The notes beneath the pieces were generated by a model. It was not told the origin of the DNA. It ran no database searches and worked only from the letters and a program-made list of their open reading frames with translations. DNA of 64,000 nucleotides from Patescibacteria group bacterium (GTDB lineage: Bacteria; Patescibacteriota; Saccharimonadia; CAILAD01; JADZBC01), in assembly GCA_052034495.1 (NCBI GenBank), contig JBPOIL010000012.1, positions 13,644 through 77,643 of the forward strand, written 5' to 3'. Both the position numbers and the translations under genes were made by a program. Below, in pieces: positions 5,976 to 38,993 of the stretch; the first letter of the stretch is position 1; every line of letters starts with the position of its first letter.

Positions 5976-8459
5976 GTGCAGATGTCTCCAGAATTTGATC
6001 GATTTACCGAGAATGCCAAGCGGAGCTTACAGAATGCCGGCGAGCTCGCTATGGGCATGGGCGCTGCCTACGTGGGGACAGAGCATCTTCTGCTTGGGGT
6101 GCTGAAGCAGCAAACGTCGATTGGTTCGAAGATACTTACCGACATGGGGGTCTCGCTTGACCGATTAAACCTAAGTACCGTTCCGAACCTCCAGGCGGGA
6201 GTTGGCGCGTCTACGCCCCAGGCCCTAAGTGCTACGGCTCGTAAAACAATCACCCTGGCTCTTCGCGTAGCTCAGGAGTATGGTCAGCCATACGCTGGTA
6301 CTGAACACCTGCTATTTGCCATCCTAGGTCAAGATAACGCCCGGGCGAACGTATTGCTGCGCGGCATAAAGGTCGACCCTACAGACGTGCGCGGTGAGCT
6401 AGAAAACTATCTGAATGCACAATCATATGCATACGAAGAGCAGGCCACTCGCCAGTCGGGCCGTAAGGGCAAGGGCAGCAAGACACCTACGCTGGATCAC
6501 TTTGGAATAGATCTGACAGCTCGTGCAGCAGCAGCCGAGCTCGATCCTGTGGTTGGGCGTGAAAAGCAGATTGACCGTATGGTTTCGATCCTCAACCGAC
6601 GTAGTAAGAATAATCCAGTCCTGATCGGCGAACCGGGCGTAGGAAAGACGGCGATTGTCGAGGGCTTGGCCCAGCGAATCGTGAATGATGATGTACCAGA
6701 GATGCTGTCCGATAAGCGTATTGTCATGCTTGATATGGCGAGTGTTATTGCCGGGACTAAATATCGAGGCGAGTTTGAGGAGCGACTCAAGAAGCTTATA
6801 GACGAAGCCAAGGCACATGCAGAAGTAATCCTATTTATTGACGAGCTGCATACCGTGGTTGGTGCCGGCTCTGCTGAAGGCGCAATTGATGCTGCTAATA
6901 TCCTTAAACCTGCCTTGGCACGTGGTGAAGTACAAACGATTGGCGCAACTACTCTAGAGGAATACCGTAAGCATATCGAAAAGGATACTGCGCTCGAGCG
7001 CCGCTTCCAGCCAGTTATCGTGCCTGAAACTACGGTCGAGGAAACAATCGATGTGCTAAAAGGCCTCCGCGGCCACTACGAGGAGTTTCATAAGGTCGAA
7101 ATATCGGACGAGGCAATCGAAGACGCATCAAAACTTGCTTCGCGCTACATTGCAGACCGGTTCATGCCAGACAAGGCAATTGATTTGATTGATGAGGCGG
7201 CTTCGCTTGCTCGAATTCGTAAAGGGGGAACTAGTAAACGATTAAAGGATTTGCAGACGAGGCTGTCGAATACGATGGAGCAAATAGATGAGGCGGTTTA
7301 CAACCAAGACTTCGAGTATGCCGCTCGCTTGAAATCCGAAGCAAGCATCCTCGAGCAGAAAATTTCGACCCAGCTGTCCAAGGACGAAAAGCAGGCCAAG
7401 ATAGTAATAAGCTCAGAAGACATTGCGGCAGTAGTGAACCAAATGACAGGGGTTCCTCTATCTAAGTTGATAAAGACAGAGTCTGAGAGCTTGGTGAAGC
7501 TAGAAAAGACACTACAGCGCAGGATTATTGGTCAGAAGGAGGCAGTTACTGCCGTGGCACACGCCATTCGTAGATCGCGCACGGGGATAGCTGACATTAA
7601 TCGACCGATTGGATCATTCATCTTCCTTGGTCCTACCGGTGTGGGAAAGACCGAACTTGCTCGCACCTTGGCCGAAGAGGTGTTTCATGACAAAGATGCG
7701 CTCATTAAAGTTGATATGAGCGAGTTCATGGAGCGACACAACGTGGCGCGGCTCGTTGGTGCACCAGCCGGCTACGTTGGTTATGATGACGGAGGCCAGC
7801 TAACCGAAAAGGTTCGACGTAAGCCATATAGCTTGATTCTGTTCGATGAAATCGAGAAGGCCCACCCTGAAGTTTTCAATATGCTTTTGCAAGTTCTCGA
7901 GGATGGCTTTTTGACTGACGCCAAGGGTCGTAAGGTGGACTTCCGTAATACGATCATCATCATGACATCCAACGTGGGTGCAAAACTCTTACACCAAGAG
8001 GCAGTGCTCGGCTTTGCTACCGACACCTTGGCTGAAGAAAAGAAGCTTGACGCTATGCATGAACGGATGGAAAAGACGATTCATTCGGAGTTGAAAAAGG
8101 CGTTTAGGCCAGAGTTTTTGAACAGGATAGACCACATCGTTATATTCCGAGCGTTATCTAAGATTGATGTTCGTTCGATTGTTGATTTGCAGTTGAACAA
8201 TTTGGCCCAACGACTTTTGGGCAAAGGGGTAGGCATTAAGTTCTCCCGCAATCTGAAGGATTTGCTAATCGACAAGGGTTACGATGTGGAGCAAGGTGCC
8301 CGTCCGCTCAGGCGAGCAATCCAAAGATTAGTAGAGGATAGGCTGGCTCTTGATATGCTTGAAGGCAAGCTGAGCGCAGGGGGTAATATAAAGGTGTCCG
8401 CAAAGGCAGGCCAAGTGCATGTGGAGACGCTTGATCAGCCCCAGCTAGCTTCAAAATGA
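5976..8459 (+). CDS. clpC: ATP-dependent Clp protease ATP-binding subunit ClpC (class III AAA+ chaperone)
   Basis: Double Clp_N repeat; two Walker A motifs ([16 protein letters not shown]); short middle domain; 827 aa. Confidence 0.9.
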
Positions 8460-9052
8460 AGATAGCCGTAGATATTGACGAGGTGTTGGCTCGAGGCTTG
8501 GCGACCTACTTGAACTACTTTAACTCTAGCTATGGGACAAGCTTTATGGAAGAAGACTTCACCCCAAGTAAGGGCTTTTGGGAAGTTCTTGGAGTTGCTC
8601 ATACTGACATTACAGAGGTGGAGCGTCATTATAGGGCGAGCCATCACTCCAAGGATTGGCTGCTGGTTCCTGGAGCACAGGATGCCATCGCCCGCCTTAC
8701 GCAGGACAATGAGCTTGTGATTATCTCTAACCGCCAGTCAGAAGGCCACGAACCGACTCGTGTATGGCTCAAGCGGAACTTTGGCTCGGCTTTTAGCCAG
8801 GTGATATTCACTGAAGCTGAAAGGGTGGGTGACAAAAAGCCTAGTAAGGCGGAGATATGTAAGCGTATTGGCGCCGACGTGCTGATCGAAGACGAAGTAA
8901 AAGAGGTTGCGGCTTGTGTAGACCAGGGCGTGCCGGTGATACTTTTTGACACACGGCTTAATCAGGATATTCAAGGCAAGAATGTTTACAGGGTGTATAG
9001 TTGGAGCGAAGCACTTGAAGTTATGGAATCCTTTGCCCTAAGTAGGAAATAG
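8456..9052 (+). CDS. HAD-superfamily 5'(3')-deoxyribonucleotidase-like protein (NT5C/YorS family)
   Basis: N-terminal IAVDIDEVL (DxDxV HAD motif I), ~198 aa; overlaps the clpC stop (ATGA). Confidence 0.55.
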
Positions 9053-19037: not shown

Positions 19038-19123
19038 GCGGATGTGGTGGAATTGGTAGACACGCTAGCCTTAGGAGCTAGTGAGGTAACACTCGTGAAG
19101 GTTCGAGTCCTTTCATCCGCACC
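19038..19123 (+). tRNA. tRNA-Leu(TAG), type II, CCA encoded
   Basis: Manual fold: acceptor GCGGATG/CATCCGC, D-loop with GG, anticodon stem CTAGC/GCTAG, loop CTTAGGA, long variable arm, T-loop TTCGAGT, discriminator A plus CCA. Confidence 0.85.
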
Positions 19124-19126
19124 AAC

Positions 19127-19226: not shown

Positions 19227-19303
19227 TTATCTAACCTGCGCACAAGGCAAAGGTTACCCCGACAGAGGTTGGGGATGAGTTGAGCCTAGGAGGCCAACCA
19301 GCC

Positions 19304-19636
19304 ATGCAAACCGAAGTGGCAAGAGAAGAGCAGCACCGTCCCCGCCTCGGAAGCAGCTACGACGCTTCCGCGGTCCCCGTGGGGCAGGTGATGCAGGTCA
19401 ACACCCGCAACTCCGCCTACTACTTCGTCTTCACCGATGAGCGGCGCATCAACCGCACCGACATCACCGGGGTCTCCGTGACCACGACGAACAAGGGCAT
19501 CGCGGTGGGTGCGCCCGCCAGCGTGCGGGTCGACCGGGTGATCCGTCGCGGGCAGTCGCTCCGCTTCGGCGCCGGTCGTGGGACCACGACTTCCGACGTC
19601 GTCTCGGTCTACGTGGCGGGTCGCCAGGTCGTCTGA
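19304..19636 (+). CDS. hypothetical small protein (110 aa) encoded in a high-GC island; start taken at ATG 19304 (ORF track begins at TTG 19280)
   Basis: AGGAGG RBS 10 nt upstream of the ATG; own promoter and terminator. GC content visibly far above the genome background; a frame-by-frame GC3 count has not been done. Confidence 0.5.
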   Translation: MQTEVAREEQHRPRLGSSYDASAVPVGQVMQVNTRNSAYYFVFTDERRINRTDITGVSVTTTNKGIAVGAPASVRVDRVIRRGQSLRFGAGRGTTTSDVVSVYVAGRQVV

Positions 19637-19702
19637 CCTGGTCCACCACAACTGCAGTCTTGAATGAGATCCAAGACAACATGCAGAGACCACCTTGATC
19701 TC

Positions 19703-30950: not shown

Positions 30951-31427
30951 ATGCCAAGGAAAAAGACCAAATCACTGAAGCGCGAATTACCTGCAGACAT
31001 TGTGTATAACAATGTCATGGTTACTCGCATGATTAATAAGGTAATGCGCAGCGGCAAGAAGCGCCTTGCCGAAAGCTTAGTATATGACGCTCTGTCACAA
31101 GCTAGCGAAAAGGCTCAAAAAGATGCACTAGAAGTATTCGAAGGCGCGATTAAGAACGTTTCGCCTCAGGTTCAGGTCAAGAGTAAGCGAATAGGCGGAA
31201 CTAATTATCAGGTTCCTATGGAAGTTAAGGGAGACCGCAAGGTTCACTTGGCAATGACATGGATACTGACGGCGGCTCGAGGTCGTAGTGGAAATTCATT
31301 CGACCGACTGCTTGCTAACGAGCTTGTAGACGCCTATAACAACACTGGTGAAGCAGTTAAGAAGAAGCAAGATACTCACCAGATGGCCGAAGCTAACAAG
31401 GCTTTCGCGCACTTCGCTCGATACTAG
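30951..31427 (+). CDS. rpsG: 30S ribosomal protein S7
   Basis: S7 family sequence, 158 aa. Confidence 0.9.
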   Translation: MPRKKTKSLKRELPADIVYNNVMVTRMINKVMRSGKKRLAESLVYDALSQASEKAQKDALEVFEGAIKNVSPQVQVKSKRIGGTNYQVPMEVKGDRKVHLAMTWILTAARGRSGNSFDRLLANELVDAYNNTGEAVKKKQDTHQMAEANKAFAHFARY

Positions 31428-31448
31428 TTCTCGAAGCAAGAACATACG

Positions 31449-31475
31449 AAAGACCCCTCATAATGAGGGGTCTTT
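31449..31475 (+). terminator. Rho-independent terminator after rpsG
   Basis: aaAGACCCCTCAtaaTGAGGGGTCTtt. Confidence 0.7.
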
Positions 31476-31510
31476 CGTATTGAGACGAGAGTATACTGGA
31501 AGAGTTATGA

Positions 31511-31534
31511 GGCCCTAGCGCATGCGCTAGGGCC
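31511..31534. repeat. perfect 24-nt palindrome GGCCCTAGCGCATGCGCTAGGGCC at the edge of the tdk island
   Basis: Read directly from the sequence; candidate terminator for the minus-strand island transcript, or a protein-binding site. Confidence 0.5.
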
Positions 31535-31557
31535 TCGGGTGAGGGTTGGTCTGAACT

Positions 31558-31776
31558 TCAGTCCGAAGGGTCTTCCGGGGGAAGGCGCTTGTCCCAGGGG
31601 ATCTCGCGAGGGCCACCCTGCAGGATGGTCGGAGCTTCTTCTTCTCCTCCTTCGCTGAGCAGGTGCCTTCCCGGAAGAGGGCTCCCGGTCGGCACAGTGG
31701 GCTCCAGCCCCGTGAATCCGGCCTGGAGGCGCGCACGAAGATCGGCGCCATCTCTCATTGCTTGGTCGTCAGCCAT
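31558..31776 (-). CDS. hypothetical acidic, Pro/Gly-rich small protein (72 aa) downstream of tdk in the high-GC island
   Basis: Same strand as tdk with a 77-nt gap; high GC; weak RBS; could be non-coding. Confidence 0.25.
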   Translation of the reverse strand: MADDQAMRDGADLRARLQAGFTGLEPTVPTGSPLPGRHLLSEGGEEEAPTILQGGPREIPWDKRLPPEDPSD

Positions 31777-31853
31777 CCTATTTGGCCTTGCCTTTCTGTT
31801 CGGTGATCAAGCCTTAGCCATATTAAACGAGCTTCCGCCCGAAGACAAGTGCA

Positions 31854-32399
31854 TTATGCGCGAACAAAGCATGTGCGACAGCGTGCCTCATAGCTATAGG
31901 TACCGTCCTCTGGCAGGATGGACGGAAGCCCTCCTGTGACTACCTCGCCGCCGTTGAGGACTTGGCTAAACCGTGCCTCATAGCTTCTGCACACGTCACA
32001 AACTGCGACAAGGCATTGCACACTTGTCGGCCCAAGTTCCATCAGGGCAACGGTGCCTTCGGTCAGTATGCCGCGATAGTCCATATCGAGCCCGACCGCG
32101 TACACAGTCGTCCCCCTGGATAGCAGTGTATCCAGTGAGCGCAGATCGTCTGGGCTGAACATATGCACTTCGTCTATACCGACTACGTCGTAGTCGGCAA
32201 GCCAGTCGACGTCGATTCCGTCGACCTTTGTCGTCTTGATGCTGGCTCCGGCACGAGAGCTCACTCGGTCTTCCCGGTCGTGCAGGTTGGGCTGCAGGAC
32301 TACCCACTTCAAATCGCTGTGCACGAGTGGCGAGAAGATCTTTATGAGCTCGAGCGATTTACCTGACTTCATGGGTCCCACGGTTAGGTGTAGTGGCAT
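31854..32399 (-). CDS. tdk: thymidine kinase, encoded in a high-GC island on the opposite strand between rpsG and fusA
   Basis: P-loop GPMKSGKS, VVGIDEVHMF, C-terminal zinc-ribbon cysteines (CDVC...CRTC). Start placed at the second ATG (AAGGAG RBS 9 nt upstream); the track ORF extends to 32408. Confidence 0.8.
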   Translation of the reverse strand: MPLHLTVGPMKSGKSLELIKIFSPLVHSDLKWVVLQPNLHDREDRVSSRAGASIKTTKVDGIDVDWLADYDVVGIDEVHMFSPDDLRSLDTLLSRGTTVYAVGLDMDYRGILTEGTVALMELGPTSVQCLVAVCDVCRSYEARFSQVLNGGEVVTGGLPSILPEDGTYSYEARCRTCFVRA

Positions 32400-32533
32400 T
32401 CGTTCCATCTCCTTACGGTTTCTTGACGTGATTATATTCTAGCTTACGAATCTAGCATTCTACCAGCCGTTAGTCGCATGAGGCCTATAGGCTAGGATTT
32501 TCCTTTGACGGCGTTGCATCCTGGGTTTTTACT

Positions 32534-32561
32534 TGATAAAGCGAAGATAATTCACTATAAT
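32534..32561 (+). promoter_or_regulatory. sigma70-type promoter for fusA-tuf
   Basis: TTGATA, 16-nt spacer, TATAAT. Confidence 0.45.
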
Positions 32562-32637
32562 TACCTAGGAATAAAGCACGGATAATGCAACCGGCTTTTT
32601 TGTTTACTAAGCTTACTAAGAAGGAACTTAACTTATC

Positions 32638-34746
<2,109 letters not shown>

Positions 34747-34767
34747 GTCGGTTCAAATTTAGAACAC

Positions 34768-34803
34768 AAAGAGACCTTGTCAGATTGACAAGGTCTCTTT
34801 GTT
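34768..34803 (+). terminator. Rho-independent terminator after fusA
   Basis: AAAGAGACCTTGTCAgatTGACAAGGTCTCTTTgtt. Confidence 0.75.
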
Positions 34804-34959
34804 AGGTTATGATACTGAGCGAGATCGACCAGGTCTTCTAGCAGACAGCCTAGTAGTAGGTAGTAGTCGAACGAGTCGGGAATGTTGAGCCCGACAAAGG
34901 CGATGAAAGCAGACGTGCTGCAGCACATCATCTGTTCTACTGAAAGCATTCACCGTTCC

Positions 34960-35345
34960 GCGCCGCCGCGTGAACTCAACCTCTGGCACGCTTCAGGTAA
35001 GCGCCGAGGTCGATAAAGTGGAGGAACTAGACTGGTTTGCAAAACCACATATCCTGCGAAAGCAGAGGCTCGGAGGCATTCGGGCGGTTCGTATCTTCGG
35101 GGTCAGGAATCTTCTCAAGACCCGTAAGGAACCAGATTGTGGGTGGCGTGCATAATGATTTCTATGCGCGCGCGTCGCACCTCGCGTTAACGCCTCACGA
35201 GCGTTGCGAGGTTTTCGGGAGACGCCGGTTGCCGTCAGGCAGCCACCAAGGTGTGTGGATTCTAGGTACCTCTGCCTGAGGAGGCCCGAGCCTAGGCTCC
35301 ACACACGCTCTGCCCCTGGCTTCCGCCAGGGGCGCTCTGCTTTAA
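34960..35345. other. GC-rich structured non-coding island in the unusually long fusA-tuf spacer
   Basis: No credible ORF. Long imperfect hairpin GGTGTGTGGA...CTAGG...CCTAG...TCCACACAC (about 35254-35308), followed by GCCCCTGGcttccgCCAGGGGC. Confidence 0.3.
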
Positions 35346-35352
35346 AAGTCTT

Positions 35353-35381
35353 TACATTGGAGCAGTTTTTACCTATAATCG
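35353..35381 (+). promoter_or_regulatory. sigma70-type promoter for tuf
   Basis: TTTACA, 17-nt spacer, TATAAT. Confidence 0.5.
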
Positions 35382-35461
35382 AAAAGTCTAAGGCCTAGAC
35401 ATATTTTTATGTGTCTTCGCCAAGCGCTTATAAATTTAACAACGTTCAACAAGGAGAATAT

Positions 35462-36646
35462 ATGGCAGAACAATTCGATCGCAGTAAGCCGCATGTTAAT
35501 GTCGGTACTATGGGGCACGTAGATCACGGTAAGACTACTCTTACTGCTGCAATCACCCACGTATTGGCTAAGAAGCTTCCTAGCGCAGTAAACAAGCCAA
35601 TTAACTACGATGAAATCGACAAGGCTCCAGAAGAGCGCGAGCGTGGAATCACTATCGCAACTTCTCACCAGGAGTACGAAAGCGAAAAGCGACACTATGC
35701 TCACGTCGATATGCCTGGTCACGCTGACTATGTAAAGAACATGATCACTGGTGCTGCTCAGATTGACGGTGCTGTATTGGTGGTATCTGCTGCTGATGGC
35801 CCAATGCCACAGACCCGAGAGCACGTTCTCTTGGCTCGACAGGTTGGTGTTCCATATATCCTTGTCTACATGAACAAGATGGATATGGCCGACCCAGAGC
35901 TTGCTGAGCTTGTTGAGATCGAAATCCGCGAACTCCTAGAAAAGAACGGCTACGACGAGAACGCCCCAATCATTAAGGGTTCTGCCCTTAAGGCACTCGA
36001 AGGCGATGCCGCTGCAGAAGACTCAATCATGGAGCTTGTGAAAGCTATGGACGAAAGTGTTCCAGAGCCAAAGCGCGAAATCGATAAGCCATTCCTAATG
36101 CCAATCGAAGACGTATTCTCAATCAAAGGTCGTGGTACGGTAGCTACCGGACGAATTGAACAGGGAATCGTGAACGTAGGTGAAGAAGTAGAGATCGTTG
36201 GCCTTCACGACACCAAAAAGACTACGGTAACTGGTGTAGAAATGTTCAAGAAGCTCCTCGACGAAGGTCGTGCTGGAGACAACGTTGGCTTACTCCTACG
36301 TGGTATTGAGCGAACTGATATCGAACGCGGTCAGGTTCTGGCTAAGCCAGGTTCAATCACCCCTCACACCGAGTTTGATTCTGAAGTTTACGTTCTTAAG
36401 AAGGAAGAGGGCGGTCGCCACACTCCATTCTTCAAGGGCTACAAGCCACAGTTTTACATCCGCACAACCGACGTTACTGGTGAAGTTACCCTACCAGACG
36501 GCGTAGAAATGGTAATGCCAGGGGATAACATCAAGATGAAGGTTAAGCTCATCGCCCCGATTGCCATGGAAGAAGGACTCCGATTCGCCATCCGCGAAGG
36601 TGGCCGAACCGTAGGTGCTGGTGTTGTAACTAAGATTAACAAGTAA
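35462..36646 (+). CDS. tuf: elongation factor Tu (track ORF starts 17 codons upstream at 35411)
   Basis: [26 protein letters not shown]; AAGGAG RBS 5 nt upstream of ATG 35462; 394 aa. Confidence 0.95.
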
Positions 36647-36670
36647 CCAGGACTATAACGGAACCTTCAC

Positions 36671-36991
36671 ATGCCAGAACAAGCAAACAAACAACGCATC
36701 CGCATTCGCCTCAAGGCGTACGACAGTAAAATTATCGATCAGTCTGCTAAGCAGATCCTTGATACTGCCGTACGTACCGGCGCACAGGTAGTTGGTCCAG
36801 TGCCACTACCTACTGATAAGAACAAGTTTACGGTGCTATCTAGCCCCCACGTGTTCAAAGACGCTCGTGAACAGTTCGAAATGCGTACACACAAACGTTT
36901 AATCGATATTACTGAGCCAACTCCGAAGACGATCGATTCACTTATGAATCTTAACCTTCCAGCTGGTGTAGACATTGAAATTAAGATGTAA
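36671..36991 (+). CDS. rpsJ: 30S ribosomal protein S10
   Basis: [11 protein letters not shown]...; 106 aa. Confidence 0.9.
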
Positions 36992-37009
36992 TTTGCTCGA
37001 TCTAGTGTG

Positions 37010-37046
37010 AATCTAAAAGCCCCTCTTAACGAGGGGCTTTTAGATT
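37010..37046. terminator. bidirectional terminator after rpsJ (perfect 16-bp arms)
   Basis: AATCTAAAAGCCCCTCttaacGAGGGGCTTTTAGATT. Confidence 0.75.
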
Positions 37047-37151
37047 GGCTATGATTTGGCGTGAGCCGTTCTTCAATACACTACGCCTTGTACTTAGTGA
37101 ATTAATATGTTAAAGTATGTATATCATCCGCCCAGACGAGGAGAGTAAGCA

Positions 37152-37457
37152 GTGGAAATCACGATTCACTCATCTCGTCTTAGGCGTGATGTAAGTGGGA
37201 AACTTGACCCGCACGAGGTAGAGGATTATACCCGCCTTGTAAGGACGTTGCTCAATGGCGCACCCAAGCTCAATATCACTCGGGTACGACTTGTCCTTGC
37301 AGAGGATCTGCCTACGGGGCTTGAGTGGCGCATCGAGGTTAAGTCTGCACCCTCTGCGGCAGACACGCGTGTTCACATCATGAAGCGCTTCAAGACACAC
37401 CTGCGCCACCCGAAGGTGGTCGATGGAAGTGACGTCGAAGTGACGTTCCTTTCTTAG
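37152..37457 (+). CDS. hypothetical protein (101 aa, GTG start)
   Basis: GAGGAG RBS 8 nt upstream of GTG; no recognisable motif. Confidence 0.4.
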   Translation: MEITIHSSRLRRDVSGKLDPHEVEDYTRLVRTLLNGAPKLNITRVRLVLAEDLPTGLEWRIEVKSAPSAADTRVHIMKRFKTHLRHPKVVDGSDVEVTFLS

Positions 37458-37485
37458 CAGTAGGCGTGACATCTCTATTCGCAAA

Positions 37486-37520
37486 GCCCGCCCGGGTCAT
37501 CTCGGGCGGGCTCAGTCTTT
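37486..37520. terminator. terminator hairpin
   Basis: GCCCGCCCGGGtcatctCGGGCGGGC plus a T-rich stretch. Confidence 0.65.
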
Positions 37521-37530
37521 ACTCGTATAA

Positions 37531-37563
37531 CCAAAAAGTACCCGAATAATAGGTACTTTTTGG
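37531..37563. terminator. bidirectional terminator (perfect palindrome with A-run and T-run)
   Basis: CCAAAAAGTACCCgaataataGGTACTTTTTGG. Confidence 0.65.
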
Positions 37564-37608
37564 TTAAGACAGAACAAAGGCATCAAGTGTTTAATAGCTT
37601 TGGTCCGC

Positions 37609-37638
37609 CCGCCTGACCCCGATGAAGGGGTCAGGCGG
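37609..37638. terminator. terminator hairpin overlapping the stop of the minus-strand ORF
   Basis: CCGCCTGACCCCgatgaaGGGGTCAGGCGG. Confidence 0.55.
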
Positions 37639-37924
37639 AGAATGCATCTTCAGGTACGAGACCCAATCGTGCAGGGGTGGAGAACGGCGGCTCCCAGTAG
37701 TGGTCATCGAAGCGTTCACGGATTGCAGCGATGACGACTTCTACCTGGTGGTCGGTCATCGCGACCTCTGCCACCTCGTAGGTGAGACCTGCCAGGTGTT
37801 GTACCCGTGCGCCTCTCTGGCCAAGTGAGACCAGCTCTTGCTGTAGGAAGTTGATGACGAGCTGATGATCATCTTCTGGAATCATCACCTGGAACTGCCG
37901 CATGACATCTTGTCGTACGTGCAT
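37631..37924 (-). CDS. hypothetical protein (97 aa; start at the ATG with AGGAGG RBS; track ORF extends to 37993)
   Basis: AGGAGG 9 nt upstream of ATG CAC GTA...; no recognisable motif. Confidence 0.4.
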   Translation of the reverse strand: MHVRQDVMRQFQVMIPEDDHQLVINFLQQELVSLGQRGARVQHLAGLTYEVAEVAMTDHQVEVVIAAIRERFDDHYWEPPFSTPARLGLVPEDAFSA

Positions 37925-38093
37925 TGCACCGAACCTCCTTTCGAAGTTTGTGGCTCGGTGAGCTACAGACTGTATCTGCAATTCACCGGCCACAATCCCT
38001 AAAAGTTTGCAAAGTGCTTAAGGCTATGCCTTAATGTGCACAAATCATACTACAGATAGGTTGACACGTCAATAAGAATGTTGAAAAAAAGAC

Positions 38094-38122
38094 TAGACAA
38101 ACAATGCTAGCTGTGTTACTAT
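38094..38122 (+). promoter_or_regulatory. sigma70-type promoter driving the large structured RNA
   Basis: TAGACA, 17-nt spacer, TACTAT, in an AT-rich stretch. Confidence 0.4.
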
Positions 38123-38128
38123 GTGTAT

Positions 38129-38677
38129 CTAAGTTTGGTTTACGCCAAATTGCACCTTATATTTGGACTTCGGTCCATACAATCAGCTCTTGATACATTG
38201 AGCGTTGATTGTATGGACCTGACACCTTAGGTAAAGTCCATTGAATTGAAATCCGATCCATTTGAGGCTACGGCCACAAGAAAGGGTAGTAGCTTGCACG
38301 GAAGAGCGCACGTTTGCTGGTTCGCCAGTGTGACGTCACCGTTTCTCCTAGCACGCTACAATGCCCTGTAGGGTCGGATGATACCGGAAGCAACGGCCCG
38401 AGGGCCACCGCTTCCTGGTGTCGCCAGAGAATTTACGCCACGCGGCTTGCCGTAGGTATTGTTCTCTGAGCTTCGCGCCTTCTGCTTCGGCAGAAGGTCA
38501 TACGCTGAGGGTCCCGCCCCCTCAGTCGCGCAGGGTGGGTTCCGCCACCTGCCCTTGCGCACGACGCGCCCCGGGATCCGCCGCCTGGGACGCGCAGGTC
38601 GGCGGGGTGGCCTCCGGGCCACCCCGCCGCACCCACCACGAGACCTTGAACTTTGTTCAGGGTCTTCTTTCATTTTT
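38129..38677 (+). ncRNA. candidate large structured ncRNA (~550 nt) of unknown class, promoter to intrinsic terminator; its 3' third is extremely GC-rich
   Basis: No credible ORF. Series of perfect hairpins: GGTCCATACAATCA/TGATTGTATGGACC (38172-38219); CCTTCTGC-UUCG-GCAGAAGG tetraloop (38478-38497); CTGAGGG/CCCTCAG (38505-38525); GGCGGGGTGGCC-tccg-GGCCACCCCGCC. Terminator GAGACC...GGTCTTC plus T-run at 38640-38677. Motifs AAAGTCC (38233) after the first hairpin and GGAAGAGCGCAC (38300) are reminiscent of RNase P RNA, but the spacing does not fit. Confidence 0.4.
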
Positions 38678-38727
38678 GGATTAACTTTCTCTTCGACTCC
38701 CCATAGTTTTTATGCTTAAATAGAGTA

Positions 38728-38991
38728 ATGAAGAATAAGGGCGGCAAAAGGTATTACGAGTCTGACTTCGCTTTTTTGGTAAAGGCGGGCCTTTATCTCA
38801 TCCTCGGACTTACATGGATATCGATTAACGGACATAGAGTGATCCCGATAGGTGTAATCCTGGGCTTTATATTCTCTAAGGTTGATGTGCTAAGGATTGA
38901 TCGCAAGATAGAATATGCTCTACTCGTCGTTGGGGCGCTCTTAGGGCTGGTTTTTACGGGCATTGGCTTAACGATCTCCATTAGTCTATAG
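38728..38991 (+). CDS. small hydrophobic membrane protein (87 aa, two predicted TM helices)
   Basis: Hydrophobic stretches LYLILGLTWISI and VGALLGLVFTGIGLTISI. Confidence 0.4.
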   Translation: MKNKGGKRYYESDFAFLVKAGLYLILGLTWISINGHRVIPIGVILGFIFSKVDVLRIDRKIEYALLVVGALLGLVFTGIGLTISISL

Positions 38992-38993
38992 TC

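Follow-up and report, generated by a model that had tools for sequence, protein, structure and literature searches.

In the translation supercluster of bacteria, small insertions are expected to be neutral only where one operon has ended and the next promoter has not yet begun (Brandis, Cao and Hughes 2019, PMC6735719). Attenuators have been predicted in streptococci between rpsG and fusA, two genes of the str operon (Naville and Gautheret 2010, PMC2965389). The locus described here lies in a stretch of 64,000 nucleotides (the window, by which we mean the whole stretch that was analyzed) from a Patescibacteria group bacterium (assembly GCA_052034495.1, contig JBPOIL010000012.1, positions 13,644 to 77,643 of the forward strand). 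In this window, rpsG (ribosomal protein S7; 30951-31427, plus strand) and fusA (elongation factor EF-G; 32638-34746, plus strand) are separated by 1,210 bp, and the interval contains a minus-strand gene for a thymidine kinase (TK), tdk (31854-32399), followed by a small minus-strand gene for an acidic protein (31558-31776). The two flanking genes were identified by their open reading frames (ORFs) and by the Pfam domains recorded for their orthologues (Ribosomal_S7 for rpsG, and GTP_EFTU plus EFG domains for fusA). The best explanation of this arrangement, and in our judgment a probable one, is that the two minus-strand genes form a long-resident accessory islet of one Saccharibacteria genus, composed of a TK1-type kinase and a clade-specific acidic protein and located in an old gap. 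The preliminary description of this DNA had instead read the segment as a recent horizontal acquisition, with an actinobacterial host as the suspected donor.

The S7 protein of the window is 92-97% identical to the S7 proteins of metagenome-assembled genomes titled Candidatus Saccharibacteria or Saccharimonadia, which agrees with the earlier surmise that this is a Saccharibacteria genome. The five closest TKs (93, 84, 79, 71 and 60% identity) are all encoded between rpsG and fusA in the same orientation, and tdk together with the small ORF occupies the matching site and orientation in the lineages designated L001, L003/L009, L005/L013, L008 and L089. As judged from these loci, the species-level lineages that carry the module number at least six, and their TK identities are 60-93%. 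L001 is conspecific with the window, with 96.8% DNA identity across 11.6 kb. For the remaining lineages, DNA identity to the window is 76-81% over the aligned rpoC-rpsG and fusA regions, and 80-86% over short segments at the ends of fusA and rpsG. A short contig, L004, was rejected as a separate variant; it is arranged like L003. Three equally close congeners lack tdk at this site. In two of them, L010 and L012, the site is empty, with spacers of 159 and 185 bp, and in L011 the gap is filled by 1.8 kb of other genes; more distant relatives likewise lack tdk at the rpsG-fusA site. Because the close congeners L010 and L012 show empty sites, the tdk segment is interpreted as an insertion, as had been supposed, and its alignment to these two loci places the bounds at approximately 31481-32532 (about 1.05 kb), from the rpsG terminator to the -35 box of fusA. 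The comparison of this junction among relatives that had been proposed thus reveals a presence/absence polymorphism; however, the module is not confined to a single species but recurs at this site in six or more lineages.

In a tree of RpoC sequences, both basal branches of the genus include tdk-bearing lineages, and the three lineages without tdk cluster in one subclade. In the most parsimonious history, the ancestor of the genus most likely already carried the islet, which would have been lost once, in the branch leading to L010, L011 and L012. Since the site is shared across diverged lineages on both basal RpoC branches, the insert is judged not to be recent. The features that speak for recent acquisition by this genome from a high-GC actinobacterial host are an atypical GC content and GC content at third codon positions (GC3), a location on the opposite strand and the lack of the module in some close relatives. 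Against these stand the genus-wide occurrence of the module at one site, in six or more lineages that have diverged to 77-86% DNA identity in the flanking core genes and to 60-84% amino acid identity in the TK, and the failure to find an outside TK of more than about 52% identity in 5.8 billion proteins or of more than 50% on metagenome contigs. Nor does the site show mobility genes, a tRNA or flanking direct repeats. A recent arrival from the host is scarcely credible on this evidence.

The same searches bear on a mobile origin. Thymidine kinases are common phage cargo, and the cargo at this site varies among lineages, as it might if the module had been brought in by a phage or another mobile element that integrated at the junction. 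However, the best phage TKs in a tblastn search of 50,697 phage records are only 26-36% identical, neither the insert nor the DNA beside it contains an integrase, transposase or terminal repeat, and the neighboring cargo in relatives is metabolic or regulatory. Scans of ORFs, repeats and tRNAs detected no mobility signature (integrase or transposase, direct repeats, adjacent tRNA), and a repeat scan for a target-site duplication or terminal repeats at the insert returned only short, two-copy, chance-like matches. We therefore regard a phage or mobile-element origin as highly improbable.

The base composition of the segment had been one of the arguments for foreign origin. The GC content of 31501-32450 is 57.2%, compared with 49.5% for the window, and this is the highest 950-bp stretch of the window (z=3.45). 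Thus, the reported elevation is genuine, but the estimate of well above 60% holds only for 31500-31799 (62.7%), around the small ORF. The GC3 check that had been suggested also gave a raised value, with 64.3% for tdk and 64.4% for the small ORF against 50.5 +/- 6.1% for the 58 other genes. The compositional anomaly of the islet is real but moderate. A partial dnaE gene (14-2233) has a GC3 of 63.9%, as high as that of tdk, so GC3 alone is no marker of foreign genes in this genome. Across lineages, GC3 amounts to 54-67% for tdk and 64-77% for the small ORF, against 44-49% for their rpoC, fusA and rpsG genes; other cargo at the junction matches the GC3 of its host (49% for a Clp-like gene in L003 and 43% for a Nudix gene in L008). 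Raised GC3 is thus, as far as these lineages indicate, a stable property of the module in every lineage and gives no sign of recent arrival. Polarized substitutions in tdk comprise 16 GC-to-AT and 13 AT-to-GC changes, counts too few to decide on ongoing amelioration.

A sharper compositional island than that of tdk is located elsewhere in the window, at 19280-19640, where GC reaches 63-72% and long ORFs run on both strands. It holds an ORF of 118 amino acids (probably 110 amino acids) with a GC3 of 83%, which lies about 155 bp downstream of a tRNA-Leu(tag) gene (19038-19124). No Pfam or Rfam match was obtained for this island, and only two homologues of the 118-amino-acid protein, with 99% and 74% identity, were found among 5.8 billion proteins. 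If any segment of the window is recently foreign, 19280-19640 is a better candidate than the tdk islet.

Outside the clade, TK identity reaches no more than 51-52% among the 5.8 billion proteins searched, which contradicts the expectation that the gene would be nested in a donor clade at high identity. A scan of metagenome contigs with the TK sequence yielded 35 loci, none above 50% identity, and returned no donor and no new members of the clade. Two outside groups come closest. The best-scoring outside TKs are, by a slight margin, those of Actinobacteria (Nocardioides, Dactylosporangium, Micromonospora and Oryzihumus), and two contigs with TKs of actinobacterial type have GC contents of 67% and 72%. 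The second group consists of TKs of about 180 amino acids from contigs of 33-46% GC, and its sole named member is from Ca. Saccharibacteria. In 53% of neighbor-joining bootstrap replicates, the clade TKs were sister to the 180-amino-acid low/mid-GC group; Actinobacteria took this position in 35%, and the clade fell elsewhere in 10%. Profile hidden Markov models (HMMs) of the three TK groups score the clade about equally. The clade TKs display DYRG and GLPS(I/V)xPEDG, lack RRAVC and have short termini, which are the states of the candidate phyla radiation (CPR) type, whereas the sampled actinobacterial TKs display DH(R/L)G, PDDG and (H/Y)RRAVC and have longer termini. One N-terminal motif of the clade, SPLxHS(D/N), resembles the actinobacterial SPLRHSN. 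Thus, the clade TK is not placed inside Actinobacteria by the bootstrapped trees, by the profile scores or by the signature residues, and tdk resembles the short CPR/Saccharibacteria type slightly more closely than it does the actinobacterial one. The proposal of an actinobacterial host as the donor finds no support in the same data.

A more remote version of this proposal deserves separate consideration. The ancestor of the genus could have received tdk in an ancient transfer from a high-GC donor, for example an actinobacterium, and partial amelioration could then have left the residual GC3 excess and an intermediate amino acid composition as traces of the donor. This scenario is favored by the origin of the top outside TKs (50-52%) in named Actinobacteria and in contigs of 67-73% GC, by the 35% of bootstrap replicates that join the clade to Actinobacteria, by fractions of GARP and FYMINK residues that are intermediate between the CPR-type and actinobacterial groups, and by the SPLxHS(D/N) motif. 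It is opposed by the 53% of replicates that prefer the low/mid-GC group including the Ca. Saccharibacteria TK, by the near equality of the three HMM scores, and by the residue states of the clade, in which DH(R/L)G, PDDG, (H/Y)RRAVC and the longer termini are missing and DYRG, GLPS(I/V)xPEDG and the length are common to CPR-type TKs. In addition, the higher raw identity could be a compositional convergence, and the balanced substitutions in tdk (16 vs 13) give no sign of ongoing amelioration, although the counts are too small to exclude it. On balance we consider an ancient high-GC donor to be unlikely, but a reading to be taken seriously.

Several points weigh against the favored explanation. 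An old transfer from a donor of very high GC3, if partly ameliorated, would leave the same GC3 excess (+7 to +19 points), and the clade TKs have a slightly higher raw identity to TKs of high-GC Actinobacteria (50-52%) than to those of low-GC CPR type (43-46%). The species tree is represented by two flanking genes that disagree with each other, so that ancestral presence with one loss is a parsimony inference; the FusA tree fits two losses, or a gain and a transfer between congeners, equally well. Finally, the promoters and terminators mentioned throughout are consensus-level sequence predictions.

The disagreement between the flanking genes may itself be informative about the history of the locus. 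The RpoC protein of the window is nearest to that of L003 (94%), whereas its FusA is nearest to those of L010 and L011 (97-98%), a conflict that suggests an old breakpoint of recombination at the gap or close to it. The islet itself is mosaic. L089 carries a small ORF of the window type (about 80% amino acid identity) but the most divergent TK (60%), whereas in L003 the TK is 84% identical to that of the window and the small ORF is unalignable at the DNA level. It is likely that, once established, the islet was shuffled between congeners, with homologous recombination acting through the strongly conserved flanking sequences. TK DNA identity between lineages is 60-80%, which means that the kinase genes have diverged at least as far as the flanks; this argues against any recent exchange of the kinase itself. 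Between the window and L001, divergence is uneven: no differences are present over about 2.7 kb (34700-37400), in contrast to about 3.8% elsewhere, and tdk with its upstream region is 8-12% divergent. This mosaic pattern indicates that strains have probably recombined recently. Neither a convincing ORF nor an Rfam match was found in the 715-bp spacer between fusA and tuf (34747-35461; 52-58% GC), a segment that L001 shares at 100% identity and that the other congeners conserve only in part. Further downstream, about 1.5 kb (37458-38993) between an rpsJ-proximal ORF and the next ribosomal-protein genes contains short hypothetical ORFs only.

The gap that holds the islet is older than the islet. 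A predicted bidirectional intrinsic terminator follows rpsG at 31444-31480; it is a stem-loop with perfect 18-nt arms (17 pairs as counted by the scan) and T-rich flanks on both strands, and an equivalent hairpin is located after rpsG in the tdk-less L010, L011 and L012 as well as in all tdk-bearing relatives. On the other side, fusA is preceded by a promoter-like element on the plus strand, TTGATA-17-TATAAT (32533-32561; 11 of 12 consensus positions). This promoter had been noted earlier and is indeed present, but it was not acquired together with the insert, since its -10 box and flanking sequence also occur in L010, L011 and L012; the fusA promoter is, on this comparison, older than the insert. 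It is followed on the plus strand by a leader hairpin (AAAGCaCGG...CCGGCTTT) and a T-run at 32573-32605, an attenuator-like layout, and the hairpin is kept genus-wide. The layout of hairpin and T-run before fusA was observed in L010, L011, L012, L014, L017, L020, L021, L024, L026 and L027, and at the level of the family, Saccharibacteria retain it with different stem sequences. No Rfam family matched the fusA leader. Its hairpin and T-run downstream of a fusA-specific promoter resemble the predicted rpsG-fusA attenuators, but its sequence is unrelated to those of the elements from streptococci or Pelagibacter (PMC2965389).

The spacer between rpsG and fusA is 140-4164 bp long in 23 of 23 Saccharibacteria loci, compared with a median of 9 bp in 51 loci of other phyla, and several of the Saccharibacteria spacers hold 1-4 kb of cargo. 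The str operon therefore appears to be split lineage-wide in Saccharibacteria, and the canonical arrangement, in which rpsG and fusA are adjacent with no terminator or promoter between them, does not apply to this locus as predicted from its sequence. Because the terminator, promoter and leader are also present in tdk-less relatives and long spacers extend phylum-wide, it was not the insert that caused fusA to gain a promoter. The bidirectional terminator would end the rpsL-rpsG unit and shield rpsG from the convergent tdk unit, and fusA would be transcribed from its own promoter through the attenuator-like leader. The islet would thus sit in a pre-existing gap between terminator and promoter, to which DNA could be added without disturbing either the rpsL-rpsG or the fusA unit. 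In consisting of non-mobile metabolic genes between an operon end and the next promoter, it resembles the inter-operon multigene insertions described previously (Brandis, Cao and Hughes 2019, PMC6735719); it differs from them in that the gap falls inside the str operon, which is single in most bacteria but split in Saccharibacteria. Accordingly, the islet is an ordinary small accessory insertion in an inter-operon gap, and it challenges no current understanding.

The identity of tdk, as first described on the minus strand between rpsG and fusA with a P-loop GPMKSGKS and a zinc ribbon, is borne out by a full-length match to PF00265 (E=4e-21; 76.1 bits against a cut-off of 20.6; profile positions 3-176 of 176) and by matches of its 181-amino-acid product to solved thymidine kinases in the PDB (E~1e-18). 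In an alignment of 17 sequences, the P-loop G8-P-M-K-S-G-K14-S15, the catalytic segment D76-E77-V-H79-M-F81 (DEVHMF), the LDMDYRG motif and the zinc-ribbon/lasso cysteines C134, C137, C174 and C177 (numbered on the 181-amino-acid protein) are invariant, and the first two align to PDB 8y7w. The protein shares with the TK1-type PF00265 kinases (chains 8y7w_A, 3e2i_A and 2ja1_A) this full-length match, the P-loop GxxxxGKS, DE(V/A)(H/Q)xF, LDxDYRG and two CxxC pairs, but represents a divergent branch with at most about 52% identity outside its own genus-level clade. The best of the NCBIfam thymidine-kinase equivalogs, NF003296, scores 92.1 bits, below its cut-off of 183, and because of this shortfall (92 vs 183 bits) the TK is called divergent; by these profiles it is a TK1-type enzyme that lies inside the PF00265 family and in none of the curated equivalog subgroups of NCBIfam. 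By family membership, it is predicted to phosphorylate thymidine or deoxyuridine to the monophosphate, which would give a bacterium with a reduced genome a salvage route to dTMP. No paper linking Saccharibacteria with thymidine kinase was found in the literature library that was searched.

As called mechanically, the ORF around tdk spans 31854-32408. All homologues begin with MPLHL, and the ATG at 32399 lies 9 nt after an AAGGAG sequence, whereas the first ATG of the ORF (32408) abuts AAGGAG directly; for these reasons, the true start is most likely the ATG at 32399, which gives the gene the coordinates 31854-32399. The ribosome-binding site AAGGAG (32409-32414, minus strand, read as the reverse complement) and the -10-like TATAAT (32431-32436, minus strand) that had been reported were both located, and a second -10-like element, TAGAAT, overlaps the latter on the same strand at 32436-32441. 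The sequence CTAGAATAnAnTCAsG is kept upstream of tdk in L001, L003 and L005. Thus, tdk would be read from its own conserved -10 element and AAGGAG.

Downstream of tdk, the acidic mini-ORF that had been pointed out, at 31558-31776, encodes a protein of 72 amino acids. Every tdk-bearing lineage has an ORF of 57-74 amino acids right after tdk (L001, L003, L005, L008 and L089), and the small proteins share F21, E25, P35 and a C-terminal PP(x)D; the tail of the window protein ends in LPPEDPSD. Between the window and L089, the differences fall on the first, second and third codon positions in the numbers 9/8/31, with 26 synonymous and 13 non-synonymous codon changes and indels of 6 and 9 nt. From this pattern, we infer that the small ORF is a genuine gene on which purifying selection acts. 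When 5.8 billion proteins were searched with a profile of the small-ORF alignment, only three clusters were retrieved, all from this clade; so far as these proteins extend, the family is clade-specific, and it had not been described previously. AlphaFold predicts an N-terminal helix (residues 2-22) with the remainder at low confidence (pLDDT 68, pTM 0.27), a model of a helix followed by a disordered tail.

A promoter-like element, TTGTCT-17 nt-TAATAT (31820-31848, minus strand), begins 5 nt past the tdk stop codon, and TTGnnn-17-TAnnAT occurs at the matching position in L003 and L008 and in a weaker, less regular form in L005. The small gene would be read from this element independently of tdk. 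Directly 3' of the small ORF lies a terminator-like palindrome on the minus strand (31509-31536). The preliminary description had recognized a perfect palindrome of 24 nt at the edge of the island; it is real and correctly placed, but is 28 nt long, with arms of 14 nt that are 100% complementary, and it is the only one in the window. It folds into a 12-bp GC-rich hairpin with a weak U-tract. Five lineages have a GC-rich hairpin of 12-16 bp at the same place (-24 to -31 kcal/mol; z -5 to -8), and the stem sequences vary among lineages while pairing is retained. The hairpin is thus predicted to be a terminator-like end of the minus-strand unit, whose transcription would end at this hairpin and the bidirectional rpsG terminator. 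No Rfam family matched the insert as a structured RNA at the gathering threshold, and permissive E-values gave only chance-level matches far below gathering scores.

The cargo of the gap in relatives suggests that it may be used repeatedly. A gene encoding a winged helix-turn-helix (wHTH) region and a Nudix domain is located at the junction in L008, L089, L011, L014 and L020, in copies that are 40-49% identical, and in all five it is divergent from a leftward cassette. This cassette consists of tdk and the small ORF in L008 and L089, of a weakly MazG/PRA-PH-like ORF and a 178-amino-acid ORF in L011, of an NT5C-like HAD phosphatase and a P-loop protein in L020, and of an unannotated 192-amino-acid ORF without a Pfam match in L014; in L027, an NT5C-like gene stands alone at the junction. 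A Clp-like gene (L003) or NT5C-like genes (L020 and L027) thus occupy the junction in relatives, and the window encodes the two kinds of protein elsewhere, at 5976-9052, where the gene for a Clp ATPase (827 amino acids) is followed, with an overlap of 4 bp, by that for an NT5C-type 5'(3')-deoxyribonucleotidase (198 amino acids; 8456-9052).

Between tdk and the divergent wHTH-Nudix gene, L008 (3849-3872) and L089 (995-1018) have a perfect palindrome, TTGACTCAA-N6-TTGAGTCAA, which is likely to be an operator. The window has neither the wHTH-Nudix gene nor this palindrome. NrtR-type proteins are Nudix-related transcriptional regulators. The wHTH-Nudix proteins are like them in combining a Nudix with a winged-helix-like region, in being encoded divergently from nucleotide-metabolism genes and, in L008 and L089, in the palindrome of the shared intergenic region. 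They differ from them in that the domain order appears reversed, with the HTH-like region N-terminal, and the Nudix match is weak in some copies; a regulatory role is putative. The evidence for the gap as a slot for nucleotide salvage is suggestive, and several of the cargo annotations are weak. It is tempting to speculate further that the rpsG-fusA gap is a dedicated site at which Saccharibacteria swap nucleotide-salvage cassettes (tdk, NT5C-type, P-loop kinase-like and MazG-like genes, often with a divergent wHTH-Nudix regulator) by homologous recombination through near-invariant flanks, that the small acidic protein is a partner or regulator of the kinase, and that the GC3 excess stems from GC-biased repair at a recombination hotspot and not from a foreign origin. 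This combined proposal is doubtful at present, and we offer it tentatively.

Saccharibacteria rely on other cells for nucleotides, and the content and turnover of their salvage genes bear on how these episymbionts feed. The long-resident islet also carries a caution, because a GC-rich gene on the opposite strand of a supposedly universal operon can be mistaken for a fresh transfer, although in this case it is stable throughout the genus and occupies a pre-existing gap. Insertions of this kind are already known, and what is new is the small protein family attached to tdk. This undescribed family, together with the hint of a recurrent landing site for nucleotide-metabolism cassettes, provides modest leads for the biology of the group.

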